DNA of 60,677 bases, counting the filler, from Hausera hauseri (Eukaryota), in the NCBI GenBank assembly GCA_046269625.1. It is 13 parts of 13 records of this genome, joined end to end, with 100 filler letters (N's around TTAATTAATTAA, not from the genome) between each part and the next. Parts side by side here need not be neighbours in the genome. Positions count along the whole stretch, not along the records: positions 17,155 to 23,082 come from JBJURY010167197.1; 12 more parts are not named here. The stretch is one strand, 5' to 3'. Both the position numbers and the translations under genes were made by a program. Positions 17,454-23,082 of the stretch are shown here, piece by piece. The stretch's first letter is position 1; each line of letters begins with the position of its first letter. The notes beneath the pieces are model-generated. The model was not told the origin of the DNA. It searched no databases and was given only the letters and a program-made list of their open reading frames with translations.

Positions 17454-20020
17454 TTGGAATTTAATGATAGTTCGTTTTACTACAAAACAATGAAAATGAA
17501 TAAAACGTGTTTTTACGCTGTGACTCATTCAGTTTCAACTGCCGAATATTCCATATATTATATGATTATACGAAATCGTCTTATGCCGTACATGCCTGAT
17601 GAAGACGATGTATATCCAGTTTTCAAAAAGGCAACCGCATCATCGTTTATAACATCTGTAAATTTCACTTCATTGCGCAATAGCAACTCTGAAGGCTCGA
17701 ATGAAAATGTTTTGTATTGCTCTTACGACCATCTTCAAGGAAAAAAGGCAAATAGATTTTCCTCTACAACTGACTTTTCAACAAATGAAAATTTGCGTGA
17801 GATGTTATCCATGTATGCGCGTAAAGATGAAATGCCGTGGAAACTAATTCCTGTGGTTGCTATCAATGGGAATAATGAAACTCCAGTTGATTATATACGA
17901 ACGGAAGCGGGAGACGTTTATTTATGGAAATATTTCGAACTCATAATGAACACGGTTGCTCAATCTGGTCTGTGGCTAAAGCAGCCACTAGAAGCATGCA
18001 GCATGTCTACGGAATCCTATAATTTGAATTGTTGGCGAGAATACATTGAAAGTGGCTTAGATGACTGGAAAAACCTTTTGACAGAGCACATTAATTCGGA
18101 TGACAACACGTCTTATTACAATACGAGAACACTTTCTTTGGGTGCAGTTTGTAACGGTGCAGCATACGGTACTACACTGTCATCAGACGATCAGATTGAA
18201 ATAAGACTCAGCATCATCGCTTTGAATCAAACTCAAAACGTTGCCGGAAACACCTTTTATATACACGCCGGAATGTTAGTAACCTCCTCACAAATCTGGG
18301 TAGGAAACGTACAAGTGATGATTGTTGCATCACAGCCTCTTACGACTTTGACTACTGAAAATACTCCATATCTGTACGCGACTAGAACTAATGCAATGTC
18401 AACAATAGTATACCTTTACGATATTGTAACAGTTCAGCATATCATCAAAATAGCTCCCCAAACAAGGACACAGTTATCCCTCAAGGTTTACACGGATGAA
18501 CTTACCACAGATAATTATGGAGTATGCTATATGACTATGATCATGGCAGGCAACAGTATGCCGTGTAATATGACTCCTGTTACCTCAACTCCGTGGGATT
18601 CTCTATTCAAATTTAACATGGAATCTGTTATGACATTTGGAAACATTCTGAATAATGGAAATTTTCCATTTGTGCAATCTCAAACATTTGATGACAATTC
18701 AATAATCGTGGAAACGGCAATAAAATTAGGAGGAACTCTTCCTACCACATTCAGCATTAAGGCTCAACTTTTAAATGCTGGTACTGTGATAAAAAGCAGT
18801 GCAGTTACATTGACATCGAGTACTCAAGTAACCAGAGTAAATGGTACTCATAATGCTACTGTTCCAACGTTCAATATGTACCTTTTGCCACTTCTGTCAA
18901 ATAATCGAACAATTATAAATGTAGTTGGATATGGTGAAATGTTACGATCCATTACGAATATACAACTAGTACCTGGTGTAATCCAATCGTTAAGCATTAT
19001 TTTTGCATCTCAACATTTCACAACGAGTCAGATGGATATTGCTACTGTTAATATTCTCACAATCGGAAGAAACATACCAAGTTTGAAACCAAGGATGCTG
19101 TCCGGAACACCATTGTTAAGAGGACCTTCTACGGATATGATTACATTCAATTTTGGAACTGTTTGTCAAAGGAAATTAGTTCTGAATGCAACTGCTGAAG
19201 ACAATAAGTTATACATGGAAACTTTATTTCGAGTACGGAAAAATCCAATTAATCCTACAGAAATAATGGAAATAAAATGTTTGGGAATGGTAAATAATTA
19301 CCCGATTTTCGTCAGTAAGATCCAGTAATCACGTAACTTATGTTCAACAACAAGAAGGTGTTATCAACGTATCGGCAGTGGCATTAACGCCTTTTGTAAA
19401 TATTGGTTCGCTTGCAAGATTCAACATAATTGTACTTTTACCACAATTTTCCCAATTTGCATCAGGGAAAATTTATATTCCTCCAACACCAAGTGGAGAC
19501 TGTTCGATGTTAAGTGGGCATAACTTACAATTCACTTCAACTGCTGGAACTCACGTTGGATTTAATGCGAACGAAAAATTTAATGCAATTATATCTTTAT
19601 CAACTAACACGTCACAACAGGATAATGTTATACTTGATTTTGGTATCGTACAGAATAGCGGTGAAATATATAAACTCGGTAATGTAAATTAAACAAGTCT
19701 GAGCAGTTTGGATAGATTTAATTTTCAATTCCGGATGCATGTCGTTGATAATCCCAATACAATTAATGGATATGCGATAAACATTCAGTTTACTTTTGTT
19801 AGAACAAATACATAGCCGATTACAATATCTACAAATACTGAACTCTTATCAAGTAGCTCTTTGTATAGTGCTGAAGATCAAATGGCCATATCTGTCTACG
19901 CTGCGTTGCTAAATTCATCACAGTTGGAATGTAGCAATTTTATCGTAATCGTTGCAGCTCCAGCGCTTATAGCACTGACATCACTTACTAATTCGACTTA
20001 CACAAGTCGTGGATATAGTA
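17454..20020 (+). pseudogene. Intronless, apparently chimeric coding block: about 200 aa unidentified segment, then a beta-rich repeat protein (624-aa open part, then frameshift and stops)
   Basis: Repeating module G-N-x-P-C...F-G-x-V/I-x-N...D-N-x-I (GNSMPC..FGNILNNG..DDNSI; GRNIPS..FNFGTVCQ..EDNKL; LDFGIVQNSG); stops at 19328, 19692 and about 19815. Confidence 0.55.
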
Positions 20021-20022
20021 TA

Positions 20023-20301
20023 CTCGACGATGCCCTAGCAAGAGTTTTACCGAAAGACTGGAAACCAAGCACGGATCTGATCACTAATATCATTTACATT
20101 TTCTTCTGTTTCTCATCCTTCACTGATTTTTATCAAATAAACATTGATTTCAAAATCGGTACGTTGATGATGAATATCACTGATCATGAACTAAAAGGGT
20201 ATGACATGTGGCTCGATGATCTGCAAAAGAAAAGGGCTGAACAGAACAAAGAATTGGAGAAGACTGCTCTTAACCTCGAAATGATGACTCGAAAACAGGA
20301 C
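20023..20301 (+). pseudogene. KIFAP3: Internal fragment of kinesin-associated protein 3, fused in frame to the upstream block
   Basis: [33 protein letters not shown]...[19 protein letters not shown] matches KAP3 [33 protein letters not shown]...[20 protein letters not shown]; no N- or C-terminal KAP3 sequence on either side. Confidence 0.9.
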
Positions 20302-20878
20302 ATCAGCTTGGAAATCACAAGAGGAAACCAATATTCGATAGATGTCGACGATCCGCTGGGGAAAGCACTCCACATATGGCCAAATTCAATATCTAGGATT
20401 CCGACACTCGAAATCAGGTGGGTGAGGTTTTTCTTACTGATTTATGCCCCCCGGTGCGGCCGCGTCGTTTGCATTTGCAAAAAATCATATATACCCCTAG
20501 TTTTGAATTTCAAATATTTTTTAGTTCATCCTTTTTTTACATAAATTCACTTCTTTCACCTACTATTCCTTTACCTGCCACCGCTATCCTGATTGCACGT
20601 TCATATCTTTTGTTTTCATGCACACAATCCGCGCTATATCCTTTTATACTTTACTATTCCCTTAGAATTGTTGCGCTGCAACCCTCCTTTCTTATTTTCA
20701 ATAATAATAAACAATAACTATTAACACTCCAATCAATTCCACGGCACTGCTGCTATACAATTCACTGTCTTCCTCACTCGACACTGCCAATTTTTATATC
20801 ACACATCAAGGCATCACTATGCATCCTGGCGACTCACTTTTGTCTGTTGTATGCAACAATCGCTAAGTAATCCACTTC

Positions 20879-23082
20879 ATGCTCCATTTTCGCCTCCGGG
20901 GTGGATCGGATTCGAATCCATCCAGCTCAGATGACAAATCCACGAATACGGGAAACACCTATTGTTTGCCACACTCCCAACAGACCCGAGGTTTGCTGAA
21001 TTTGCCTTGTGTGGAGTTTTTTCTTGATAAGAAAAACTCCAGCAAACCTTGGCTCCAATTTCACCAACAGTGGCTCAAGTCAAACAACATTATAGACTCG
21101 TTTGTACGAGCAAATAGTCTTCTAATTCTTCTTCCTGCCAACATCAAGCACCAAATTAATAACATTTCTGAACTGCTACAATCACCAACACCCTATGCGA
21201 CACTCTGTGACGCTGTACTGCATGTCACAGATTCTTCAATTGACAATATCATACAAAAATATTTCAATGACTACGCAACAGGGAACCAAAAACCGTCCGA
21301 TTTTCTCAAAACAGCCATTCTCCAACTTAGTGCACTAGGAGTGACCCCAACAAATAACGCACATTTAATTTGTCGTTATTTCCTATCGTCTCTGCCAACC
21401 CCAATCAGAGCCTTGCTGACAGTCGTTGACGAATCCACTGAATTAAAAAACTGGCAATTATGGCTGACAAATCTTTTAAAATTCTTAACACTAGCAGTTC
21501 CCTCCCTGTTGCTGCTGCGACCACATGTACTTCAACCACAGATACAACATTCTTTATTCAGCAATTGCAGACGATGCAGCAACAATTTGATATGCTACAA
21601 CAATCAATCTTGGCCATTACTACAAAACTGAGTAATCTCGATGGGCCTCGACGAAGTGGAACCCGACCTTCTCGGGAGCGAAGCTCTTCAAAGCATTATT
21701 TTAGGTCCATTTCACCTGGAAGACGCATAACTTGTTTCTACCACATGAGTTTTCGAAAGGAAGCAAGGAAATGTTTCTTGGGTTGTCGATACTTTAGTGA
21801 GCGATACGCTATAAACAACCCTATTTGTGTATACCATAACAAATATCAATCACAGGCCAGATCATGTGTGCCTGGTTGTAGACATTATAAAAAAAATCTA
21901 GCTTTTCTTCCTCTTCTTCCTTTCCTCCAAATCCTCCAAAAAACTTATAACGCCGCCAGATGTTACTGCACCTTCTGGCGCAGGCAACTTCGCTCAATCT
22001 TCTGGCCGTTTCAACACCGCCTCTGCAGTCTTTCTGTTGAAAGCTGCACTTTTATGCAGCGATAGTTCACACATCGATTTTCTTATAGATTCAGGAGCTG
22101 CCTTTTCACTCCTTCCGTTGTCCTTCGTTCCTACCTCGACTATGATTTCCTGTCCACCGCTTTTCACTGAAAGTGGACAACCGTTGCACGTTGCAGGAAC
22201 CACGGAATTGACTTTTACATTCGCCAACTTGCCAGATAAGTTTGCCTGGAAGTTCCACGTGGCCAACATTAAATCTCCAATAATCGGCTCAGACTTTCTT
22301 GCCGCCCATGATTTATTGGTAGATTGTAAATACAGCTGTCTTCTAATCAGAAACTCGATTTCAACTTCAAACATTTGTCTCGCAAATGACTTAGCAAGCA
22401 ATTCATTGAACTCATCGGGAAACATATTGAACGTTTCTTCATCTATTAAAAAAACTTCAGATAAAGTTGACAGACCTTCAATTATGAGCGAAAATCTTAT
22501 ATCTATTTTGAAACAGAAATCCAAATTAGGTGTCGACAGTAGCAATGCCAGTTGTTTTTCTTCAGTCATTGCAGCTGTTCTTTCTAAAGATACGCCTCAA
22601 TCATTCTTATCTTTAGACTCCGATCTTAGATCGTATATCACAATATAATGCTTTCGAATAGTTAAAAGAGACATCAACTTCAAGATCTCACCCTCAACTT
22701 ATCATCACATCGTAACGGAGCATCAGAGGCCTAACAAGCAGAAGGTCAGACTTTTGTCGCTACGCAGACGTAAAGCTGTGGAGCAGGAGTTTAATGAACT
22801 GAAAAAGTCTGGCATCGTTCGGCGATCGAATTCACCATGGGCCTCTCCTCTTCATGTAGTGGTAAAAAAAGATGGAACCTATAGTCTATGTGGCGACTAT
22901 CGCCAATTAAACAATATTATTATTACAGATGCCCATCCACTACCATTCATCAAGGATATTCTTCATAGCCTCAGCAACACCAATACTTATTCTACTATTG
23001 ATCTTCACAAGGCCTACCATCAAATCCCTGTTGCGCCTGATGACATTCCAAAAACTGCTGTCATCACACCATTTGGCCTTTA
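20879..23082 (+). mobile_element. Gypsy LTR retrotransposon 5' internal region: gag, aspartic protease and start of RT (frameshifted)
   Basis: gag with two C-x-Y-H...C-x3-C motifs; protease FLIDSGA...IIGSDFL; RT SPWASPLHVV, CGDYRQLN, IDLHKAYHQIP, KTAVITPFGL. Confidence 0.94.
21938..21980 (+). promoter_or_regulatory. Putative gag-pol -1 ribosomal frameshift signal
   Basis: AAAAAAC at 21938-21944 followed by a CGCCAGA/TCTGGCG stem; the homologous copy has A_AAA_AAC immediately before the gag stop (31783-31789, minus strand). Confidence 0.7.

Follow-up and report, generated by a model that had tools for sequence, protein, structure and literature searches.

A decayed mosaic of host-gene fragments lies directly upstream of gag in a Ty3/Gypsy contig of Hausera hauseri

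Host-gene capture by LTR retroelements of this kind is already known, and in animals it has mostly been described as an infrequent mishap that leaves the element crippled; having different host pieces in each sister copy is unusual. In the available part of Tan et al. 2016 (PMC5131818), on LTR-mediated animal retrocopies, each of the 15 Drosophila retrocopies takes the place of part of the internal ORFs and, much as at the locus described here, incomplete host coding fragments, in some cases derived from more than one gene, are joined in sense to LTR-element sequence, with secondary amplification. One sister copy (copy E, below) fully fits that pattern, its internal ORFs being replaced, whereas the studied locus keeps gag, protease (PR) and reverse transcriptase (RT) with the cargo upstream of gag, and copies A and B hold their cargo directly after the PPT. 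Element sequence flanking the cargo is clear on the 3′ side; on the 5′ side it would consist of the candidate primer-binding site (PBS) segment. According to the accessible text of PMC13317346, maize Bs1 is likewise a multi-gene mosaic inside an LTR element, and BARE-2 likewise had foreign sequence put into its LTR by template switch; Bs1, the Veju TRIM and BARE-2 differ in being plant elements, the BARE-2 insert is another element and not host genes, and that text does not mention a ubiquitin-like tag for them. The planarian giant Gypsy element Burro and Ogre, as far as the consulted portion of PMC6431247 describes them, are similar in having captured domains from the host, in carrying an accessory ORF ahead of gag and in possessing a Ubi2/SUMO-like domain. 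The extras of Burro are fixed domains in a polyprotein of ~5000 aa that starts with Gag and has the ubiquitin-like (Ubl) domain inside, whereas in the present lineage the cargo varies between copies and decays, and a Ubl-like segment stands ahead of Gag.

The window, meaning the whole stretch of DNA analysed (60,677 nucleotides of Hausera hauseri, GCA_046269625.1), is made of 13 contigs joined by 100-nt spacers, and for the studied locus only 17155-23082 (JBJURY010167197.1) is contiguous. A decayed host-gene mosaic lies directly upstream of gag in this Gypsy contig. The order, all in sense, is a piece of ~200 codons without database match, ~3.5 beta-repeat units, 90 KIFAP3 codons, ~330 non-coding bases and Gypsy gag-PR-RT. 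This order, the identities of the parts, the coding nature of the pre-gag region and the differing cargo in relatives (P0011 being a relative from an independent assembly) are established, and the features are as follows.

17155..17387, plus strand: AT-rich start of the contig, with CTACA at its end; candidate for the 3′ part of a 5′ LTR, cut by the contig end
17328..17440, plus strand: segment that copy B has as well (57347-57231, minus); it covers the candidate LTR end, the candidate PBS and ~40 nt beyond
17391..17402, plus strand: candidate Leu-tRNA PBS, 10/12 to the Steamer PBS
17454..18086, plus strand: coding-like segment without database match, sharing the reading frame of the beta-repeat piece; its first ATG is at 17490
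18087..19794, plus strand: internal fragment, ~3.5 units long, from a family of large extracellular beta-repeat proteins that have a C-terminal F5/8 domain
19816..20031, plus strand: 72 codons after the stop at 19813, in frame with KIFAP3 (unit HMM iE 0.015)
20032..20301, plus strand: internal KIFAP3 (KAP3) fragment, 90 codons, gap-free; the frame closes at 20542-44
20302..20630, plus strand: non-coding pre-gag region with a GC-rich patch (20456), a TATA-like run (~20487) and a pyrimidine-rich tract
20631..20905, plus strand: Gag N-terminal extension, putative SDE2/ubiquitin-like segment ending in RLRGG, homologous to P0011 468-555
20906..21921, plus strand: Gypsy Gag with a doubled Cys/His motif and a frameshift near 21440, 55-58% to P0011
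21902..23082, plus strand: protease-like frame, linker with a stop (22646-48) and RT start (RVT_1 E 5e-7), ended by the contig end

Profile and homology searches showed that the mosaic pieces are partial, sense-oriented host coding fragments from more than one source gene. The first segment (17454-18086) gave no match in Pfam, in a 50%-cluster HMMER search, in the ESM Atlas or against the beta-repeat homologues, and it runs into the beta-rich protein in a single open frame of 639 codons (17409-19328), as an earlier note on this DNA had proposed. The beta-repeat family is spiralian, with phmmer matches to Lineus, Sinanodonta and Lingula proteins (E 2e-14 to 1e-5), and a repeat-unit HMM matched at 18087-18323, 18399-18770, 18942-19325 and 19387-19794; the units are collinear and leave no room for introns longer than ~30 nt. 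The same note had this piece running in frame straight into KIFAP3, but the frame changes between 19325 and 19387 and stops follow at 19690 and 19813, so that the frame of KIFAP3 extends upstream over no more than the final 72 codons (19816-20031). These codons probably represent a degenerate beta-repeat, weakly assignable by the unit HMM; a pairwise test against the beta-repeat was not significant. The ~93 internal KIFAP3 residues were confirmed (Pfam KAP, E 3e-26 over 93 residues; 66/90 identical to P0001), correspond to KAP3 chain residues 177-258 in PDB 9w9h, and abut the beta-repeat piece, also an internal fragment, without a spacer. The view that this is not a simple insertion into a KIFAP3 gene holds, since the 5′ part of KIFAP3 is missing upstream of the fragment. 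Searches for a parent locus of the mosaic pieces found none, the nearest KAP3 being 73% identical.

Gag, protease-like and RT frames follow the mosaic on the same strand, as expected, and this order together with the Gypsy-type RT assigns the element, at the level of sequence, to Ty3/Gypsy, within which its lineage is presumably CsRN1-like. Its assignment to the family of the tip-bearing copies did not stand: those copies (TGTG(G/A)TGCCGTGGA) are mutually 78-83% identical in DNA, amino-acid identity between the studied element and copy C is 49-62% in RT and 42% in PR, and by these comparisons the element is classed as a distinct family. Its RT is 48% identical to that of the canonical element L001, whose pol reads RT-RH-IN, and the P0011 Gag matches the L001 Gag (E 2e-9). 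Coding homology with P0011, a 58% identical relative, reaches up to 20631 (2-3/2000 shuffles) and spans 20711-20905, which moves the predicted start of Gag ~240 bases upstream and replaces the supposed non-coding leader of ~500 bp. Between KIFAP3 and gag neither an LTR nor a PBS was found, there is no TGG between 20420 and 20826, and 20302-20630 showed no significant similarity to either the P0011 linker or the copy B end.

At the studied locus the Gag extension is interrupted twice, by a stop at 20864 and, near 20712, by a frameshift. This broken copy gave no Pfam match, and the P0011 segment matched Sde2_N_Ubi_yeast below the cut-off (E 3.4e-4, 21.5 versus 26.4 bits); the top PDB sequence matches of the extension were SDE2 (E 0.16) and polyubiquitin (E 0.25). 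A model of the segment (pLDDT 69, pTM 0.54) has the order strand-helix-strand-strand-helix-strand, and fold searches with it returned nothing significant. A ubiquitin fold of this SDE2/ubiquitin-like extension is, on these data, putative. The di-glycine end reads RLRGG at the studied locus and in P0011 and ICGG (altered) in copy E, and the residue following GG in the lineage is S, T or M. In SDE2, as the available text of PMC13572447 describes it, the N-terminal Ubl ends in a di-glycine at which a DUB cut frees the downstream protein. In Pfam and among PDB sequences the Gag extension matches this Ubl best; it differs in its sub-threshold score, in the null fold search and in that its cleavage is putative. 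Literature searches at listing level returned no published case of a Ubl-like segment at the front of Gag.

Recognisable host fragments are present in 4/6 copies of the lineage in the window, with two at the studied locus, one in copy A, three in copy B, one in copy E and none in copies C and D.

7470..8793, minus strand: copy E, with Ubl-segment end, gag N-half, host pieces (Cse1/exportin-2, Cse1 E 1e-16), PPT and LTR start
40817..43283, minus strand: copy A, with PPT, tip (43271), a piece and a decayed DXD glycosyltransferase (E 5e-4, below cut-off)
55651..58762, minus strand: copy B, with integrase end, PPT, tip (58750), Kv1 fragment, AT-rich spacer, then PBS-side parts
within 55651..58762, minus strand: PBS side of copy B, with ACA and an exact Leu-PBS (57279), a RUN fragment fused to a Na/H-exchanger (NHE) fragment, and a GC-rich patch

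The RUN and NHE fragments of copy B are internal pieces that abut without a spacer, and in copy E host pieces replace the end of gag and pol. In scans of both strands all 6/6 fragments at three loci were in sense and 0/15 antisense frames matched, copy E being scanned in sense frames only; counted by locus the bias is only 3/3, and P0011 was findable only as a sense fusion. P0011 carries a truncated CARM1 fragment ~65 codons before the same tagged Gag and reads CARM1-linker-Ubl-Gag through 900 open codons, the slot just ahead of Gag thus holding CARM1 in P0011 and KIFAP3 at the studied locus. The core of the earlier reading, host cargo of a Gypsy element mirrored beside other copies, stands because of CARM1 in this slot, the other sense fragments in sister copies and the apparent repetition of KIFAP3 in run X1 (a hint), whereas its placement of the LTR and PBS does not.

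That reading had put candidate LTR ends at 20738-47 and 20810-17 and a PBS at 20827-35. All three motifs are present, but they are probably not LTR ends or a PBS, since the coding homology with P0011 over 20711-20905 makes them codons of the conserved Gag extension: P0011 codons permit at most 6/10, 5/8 and 7/9 matches to the three motifs, and a TGG at the PBS is impossible there. Steamer, which presumably belongs to another Gypsy clade, offers a different comparison. Its LTR ends in ACA and is followed by a 12-nt Leu PBS with at most two changes in the last three bases; it has short LTRs and no mention of cargo in the part available (PMC8905726). A candidate LTR-end/Leu-PBS signature of this type lies 5′ of the mosaic at 17383-17402 and recurs in copy B, where the Leu-PBS 12-mer is exact (57279). 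A CA followed by a 10-nt leading PBS match was obtained in 1/1000 shuffles at the locus and 0/1000 in copy B, with a panel of four PBSs picked after the motif had been seen. The contig start (17155-17387) ends at an ACA-AAT-TGGTG junction, the same as the actual LTR/PBS junction of L001, whose PBS differs from the candidate Leu-PBS. The top match of 17328-17440 in the whole window was to copy B, with a score of 57 that 0/100 shuffled queries reached (maximum 55). No significant common U5-like segment was found between copies A and B, whose pol sequences are 83% identical, and the window contains no tRNA genes. This mosaic was not found after integrase and PPT in the other 12 contigs, nor a family tip 5′ of the cargo at the studied locus, where the contig may start inside the LTR. 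The 11-nt string ACA-AAT-TGGTG has one further, chance occurrence at 3020, within an integrase and on the wrong strand, and the 12-mer of copy B could belong to the RUN gene as its first codons.

Run X1 covered the locus in all 30 bins; its summed depth is a hint and not a copy number. Several contigs reach up to ~17453, with 2-4x the summed depth over 17155-17387, and single contigs continue across the cargo. Summed depth over KIFAP3 is ~400 against 12-24 upstream (~25-fold, as a hint), and KIFAP3 and the DNA after it appear repeated. One contig (17779-19201) bridges the junction of the no-match segment and the beta-repeat; among the 8 matches listed (3896 further) none bridges beta-repeat/KIFAP3 or KIFAP3/gag. 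Of 23 changed codons in the mosaic 18 were non-synonymous, as counted from 25 sites in the 40 rows listed out of 554. Both X1 insertions within the first 639 codons are of 3 bases and that frame is still open, which counts against a neutral relic, since a neutral relic need not show either.

That the cargo was captured by the element as such is likely, and we favour, at a rough probability of 0.5, capture with the cargo in the 5′ leader, between the Leu-type PBS at 17391 and the Ubl-tagged Gag, because it is 5′ of the mosaic that the better LTR-end/Leu-PBS signature is found, with a second instance in another copy. The contig would then represent the 5′ half of a Ty3/Gypsy element, now decayed, from a lineage in which the uptake of host mRNA pieces is habitual. 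Reverse transcriptase may have left the element RNA for host mRNAs packaged with it and then returned, leaving the no-match, beta-repeat and KIFAP3 pieces within the element and gag-PR-RT retained downstream. As suggested by depth, the KIFAP3 piece was probably captured before the upstream pieces and amplified with the subfamily, and the mosaic would since have drifted neutrally. The RNA route, the use of the PBS, the order of events and cleavage after GG are parts of this scheme that we infer. It is possible, if on the unlikely side, that the mosaic instead sits inside a multi-kb LTR, with its TG tip beyond the contig start and its end in or at the end of the Ubl coding segment; both LTRs would hold cargo, the frame could pass from LTR into Gag, and the Leu-PBS-like motif would be a captured relic. 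Copies A and B, with host fragments directly after the PPT and a common tip of ~50 nt, fit such an arrangement, as does the register of the tip with the GG junction of copy E (14/17; 10/17 at the studied locus). The 10-nt tip complement at 20738, met in 28/3000 shuffles of 20302-20900 and so somewhat above chance, points the same way, as does the A at 20748 in all five X1 contigs, which gives an ACA end. It is opposed by the missing TGG after 20747, the codon limits set by P0011, the lack of a family tip in contig 17155-23082, and the ends of copies: after four window integrase ends nothing from 17155-20700 recurs except the 113-nt PBS segment, and the copy B end against the Gag start is not significant (243/2000).

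It is improbable that there is no single mobile unit and that a Gypsy element inserted beside decayed host fragments or an unrelated (Steamer-like) cargo remnant, the mosaic having formed by DNA-level rearrangement. Neither an intact 5′ LTR nor a target-site duplication is visible in the contig, a Leu-PBS is known from Steamer elements (PMC8905726, in the part available), and X1 shows the cargo ahead of KIFAP3 at low copy; yet no LTR or PBS separates KIFAP3 from gag, CARM1 occupies the same slot in P0011, all fragments are in sense, the KIFAP3 piece and following DNA appear repeated, and the upstream DNA lacks the 5′ part of KIFAP3. Hardly probable at all is a short-read assembly chimera joined via repeats, to which the fragmented assembly (4-6 kb contigs) and two of three junctions without a bridge among the X1 matches listed would lend themselves, but which is at odds with the bridged first junction, the cover in all bins, and the same architecture in the independent assembly of P0011 and in copies A, B and E.

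Against the usual picture of crippling accidents, most assessable copies of the lineage (4/6 in 60 kb, plus P0011) hold differing host pieces, in a slot that leaves gag-pol untouched. This genome may therefore harbour an extensive library of shuffled fragments of genes. Such a library would matter for annotation, as a source of false gene models and inflated gene families. A further proposal, which we regard as doubtful, is that the lineage is a standing exon-shuffling vector with a cargo slot before gag and a Ubl spacer, in which captured sequence would be translated in frame with Gag and removed by host deubiquitinases, leaving Gag intact whatever the cargo. Were host enzymes indeed to cut the Ubl segment, such cleavage would give a retroelement a novel means of tolerating 5′ cargo.

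A TopBP1-like gene elsewhere in the window has an uninterrupted frame of 693 codons, so the genome may be intron-poor.

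The mosaic upstream of the Gypsy gag lies in contig 17155-23082, the only truly contiguous sequence around it, as the window strings together 13 short contigs with spacers of 100 nt and what lies past the ends belongs to other contigs. A single open frame of 639 codons (17409-19328) begins the mosaic, and its first ~225 codons gave no match in Pfam, in HMMER searches, in the ESM Atlas (residues 25-235) or among the beta-repeat homologues. From 18087, the sequence matched extracellular proteins of 1600-1800 residues made of ~165-residue beta repeats (E 2e-14 to 1e-5), a family with an F5/8 domain at the C-terminus. 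The ESM Atlas returned a single match, at 0.76, for residues 240-639 of the frame, and a word-indexed homologue search with the whole frame returned 0 of 6128 candidates. Named relatives of this piece were nemertean, bivalve and brachiopod only, so the host is probably a spiralian invertebrate; P0002, P0003 and P0005 are large beta-repeat proteins of a spiralian family with C-terminal F5/8, whose ~165-residue repeat is without a Pfam model. A repeat-unit profile placed the following units.

18087-18323, plus strand, beta-repeat unit
18399-18770, plus strand, beta-repeat unit
18942-19325, plus strand, beta-repeat unit
19387-19794, plus strand, beta-repeat unit in another frame

Whether the frame change at 19325-19387 marks a small intron was considered, with 12 GT-AG pairs fitting the phase, yet the repeat register requires ~24 residues to be encoded by these 62 nt and a plain frameshift is therefore preferred. 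The pieces had been described as running in frame into one another, and this was true of the first join and again of the 72 codons immediately preceding KIFAP3 but not of the whole chain, which is broken by the frame change and by stops at 19690 and 19813. Reading 19816-20031 as an internal repeat was rejected, the score being reached by 331 of 2000 shuffles. The KIFAP3 identity was borne out over 90 codons (20032-20301; Pfam E 3e-26), of which 66 are identical, ungapped, to the KIFAP3 relative P0001; the frame ends at 20544 without joining Gag in the window's copy. A domain scan of the mosaic found no further KIFAP3 part upstream of this piece, which rules out the simple insertion into KIFAP3 that the earlier note had named as its refutation.

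A search across sequencing runs listed one that carries the sequence and no RNA run, an outcome uninformative about expression. Codons were compared with sequencing run X1 at 25 sites among the matches listed (40 of 554). Among these matches, 18 of 23 changed codons were non-synonymous, with one stop gained and one lost, a pattern of drift; counter to this pattern, both X1 insertions in the 639-codon frame were of 3 bases each. Summed X1 contig depth, which gives no copy number, was 12-24 over 17551-19926, ~400 over KIFAP3, 130-300 up to 20718 and >1300 from 20719, hinting that KIFAP3 is carried along in many copies. One X1 contig bridged the first mosaic junction, and no piece bridging the beta-repeat/KIFAP3 or KIFAP3/gag junction was present among the 8 matches listed (3896 more exist).

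Carrying host cargo is habitual in this lineage, with identifiable host fragments in 4 of its 6 copies in the window. The other five copies are as follows.

Tip at 43271, minus strand, copy A: integrase, PPT, tip and a decayed glycosyltransferase
Tip at 58750, minus strand, copy B: integrase, PPT, tip and pieces of Kv1, RUN and a Na/H-exchanger
Tip at 28350, minus strand, copy C: no Pfam match
Position ~2828, minus strand, copy D: no Pfam match
Contig 4174-8793, minus strand, copy E: first half of gag, Cse1 (E 1e-16), PPT and LTR start

The tip, a shared LTR start of ~50 nt whose last bases are ATG in A, B and C, was common to A/B, B/C and A/C (0 of 300 shuffles). In the relative's protein P0011, CARM1 cut short (residues 136-398, E 4e-80) stands ahead of the same tagged Gag, at a distance of ~65 codons; different cargo in relatives, the anatomy and the identities of the pieces are direct observations. 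Scans of both strands found 6 of 6 fragments at three loci in sense and matches in 0 of 15 antisense frames; for copy E the scan covered the sense frames, and P0011 was findable only as a sense fusion. Copy E, in which cargo stands in place of the gag end and pol, resembles the replacement pattern in the available text of Tan et al. (PMC5131818). Copy D (2828-2399, minus) may have an ordinary ~430-bp LTR with a TGTAG start, a TATA-like run, AATAAA and a CACA end, and no cargo was identified there. The canonical relative L001 (2717-3065), circularly assembled or tandem, has pol, PPT, a ~345-bp LTR, a PBS and a gag without the ubiquitin-like extension, an architecture that can serve as outgroup.

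We give a probability of about 50% to the order LTR end, PBS, cargo, pre-gag region and tagged Gag. At the contig start, CTACA-AAT-TGGTGTCAGA (17383-17400) is spelled as in the real LTR/PBS junction of L001 and agrees at 10 of 12 positions with the Leu PBS known from Steamer, for which PMC8905726 notes variation at the three final positions; its tRNA identity also appears in the portions available of PMC7997516 and PMC3413118. Copy B has the exact Leu-PBS 12-mer at 57279, likewise after ACA, with the Kv1 piece on one side and RUN on the other. Shuffles equalled the PBS match in 1 of 1000 cases for the contig start and 0 of 1000 for B, using a panel of four PBSs that was picked after the motif had been seen and includes one off by a base. 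The best window match of 17328-17440 was B 57347-57231 (score 57 versus a maximum of 55 in 100 shuffles; 0/100), and several X1 contigs extend up to 17453, with single contigs beyond. Together, the junction and PBS likeness, the B match and the contig step argue for cargo in the leader, under which B would be a head-to-tail junction, the shared LTR itself holding Kv1. The PBS reading has weak points: the 11-nt junction string also turns up once by chance, at 3020, A and B share no U5-like stretch at a significant level, and the 12-mer in B may simply be where the RUN coding sequence starts. The window contained no tRNA and no relevant Rfam family. A giant LTR enclosing cargo and tag is favoured by the host pieces that A and B bear right after integrase, PPT and tip, and by the tip being in register with the GG junction of E (14/17); it seems rather unlikely.

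The earlier note had placed a 5′ LTR with ends at 20738-20747 and 20810-20817 and a PBS-like motif at 20827. All three are codons of the ubiquitin-like segment, where P0011's residues permit at most 6/10, 5/8 and 7/9 matches, respectively, and make TGG at 20827 impossible. Two points speak for the earlier placement: only 28 of 3000 shuffles contain a match as good as the 10-nt one to the tip's complement, and five X1 contigs all read A at 20748. This match is not followed by TGG, however, which occurs nowhere in 20420-20826. The tip, which had been assigned to the window element's family, comes from another one (RT 49-62% to copy C) and was not found in contig 17155-23082. Several other ideas were rejected as well. 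The tip proposed at 17828 falls within the open frame, and P0011's residues, on inspection, do not permit a His-type PBS where the GG junction lies. Tip hairpins (z -1.35 to 0.87), a promoter core shared among the window locus, B and D, and the end of copy B as a Gag start (243-796 of 2000 shuffles) all failed their tests. After the first TG, the A/B/C tip (43271-43250, 58750-58730, 28350-28330, minus) resembles a His-tRNA PBS plus an extra G (PMC3253121), with one match within 3 edits for A where 0.03 are expected. As the LTRs of L001, of the related elements L002 and L005 and of copy E also begin TG-TGG, part of this likeness is a clade trait.

A search with the pre-gag frame identified P0011, a 900-residue protein encoded on an 8.8-kb ENA contig; it shares 58% identity with the query, 96% of which is covered. 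Coding homology with P0011 begins at 20631 (2-3 of 2000 shuffles), so the supposedly non-coding leader is partly coding; the homologous segment has a frame change near 20712 and a stop at 20864, and its first domain ends in RLRGG at 20905. The Gag extension is probably ubiquitin-like. The P0011 segment matched Pfam Sde2_N_Ubi_yeast at E 3.4e-4, below the family cut-off, the profile gave SDE2 (E 0.16) and polyubiquitin (E 0.25) as the top two of three PDB matches, and a structural model of the segment has the ubiquitin order of elements (pLDDT 69). Foldseek with the 4-row model returned 0 matches at E<=0.001, ISG15 and ubiquitin appearing only at E 0.4-1.6 with HPr ranked above, and the best VIA Z was 4.3. 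The window's segment alone had no match in PDB or Pfam, and its single-sequence model had a pLDDT of 46. Copy E carries the end of the same segment. By analogy with the ubiquitin-like domain of SDE2 (PMC13572447), the extension may be cut after GG. Since the ATG at 20618 lies near the position of P0011 Met465 and the KIFAP3 frame is closed by then, Gag may have its own start site; the open CARM1-Gag fusion of P0011 may be chance plus search bias. In E (8758-8742, minus), the tip is in register with the GG-junction codons of tagged Gag; here (20897-20919) the in-register likeness is 10/17, and next to these codons comes a 12-nt palindrome resembling a tRNA T-arm complement.

Most likely, reverse transcriptase jumped several times from element RNA to host mRNAs packaged with it and back, and the products stayed mobile because gag-pol and the priming signals were spared. 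Such template switching has been reported in animals (PMC5131818) and in plants (PMC13317346). The RNA route, the use of the PBS and the order of capture are presumed, and the 693-codon TopBP1-like frame in the window calls for caution on the RNA route, as long exons may be normal in this genome. Host-gene capture by LTR elements is already known; what differs here is the slot ahead of gag-pol in intact order, how often cargo occurs and how varied it is, and the ubiquitin-like start of Gag. In Burro, going by the part of PMC6431247 available, the ubiquitin-like domain lies within a polyprotein starting with Gag, whereas here it precedes Gag. A title-level literature search, with subscription journals and supplements outside its scope, found no published layout of this kind. 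Collection scans gave 0 of 29 for the protease in viral contigs, none for the tip pattern and 0 of 592 for Gag in metagenomes; for integrase, 5 of 316 matched, all distant (39-47%). That the lineage is an exon-shuffling vector with a cleavable spacer, convergent in two LTR superfamilies, is a bolder reading that we find unlikely.

Elsewhere in the window, a TopBP1-like multi-BRCT gene (45737-50055, minus) has long uninterrupted frames, a frame change near 49700 and a ~1-kb insert with 119-nt tandem repeats, and would fit a retrocopy or, alternatively, a genome with few introns. A decayed family-B DNA polymerase element, which we take to be Polinton/adintovirus-like, is present in three copies 80-84% identical (4305-6831, 13113-16657 and 51474-55214, minus) and also at ~100-700. 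Another Gypsy family forms a tandem pair at 36604-40716 (85% identical, 2582-nt spacing, CCHC Gag and protease). IQSEC-like gene frames with Sec7 and PH domains (9501-10659) adjoin a Tc1-like transposase fragment (11374-11766), and at 34977-35777 inverted and direct repeats are nested in a MITE-like cluster with 217-nt arms that are 86% complementary.
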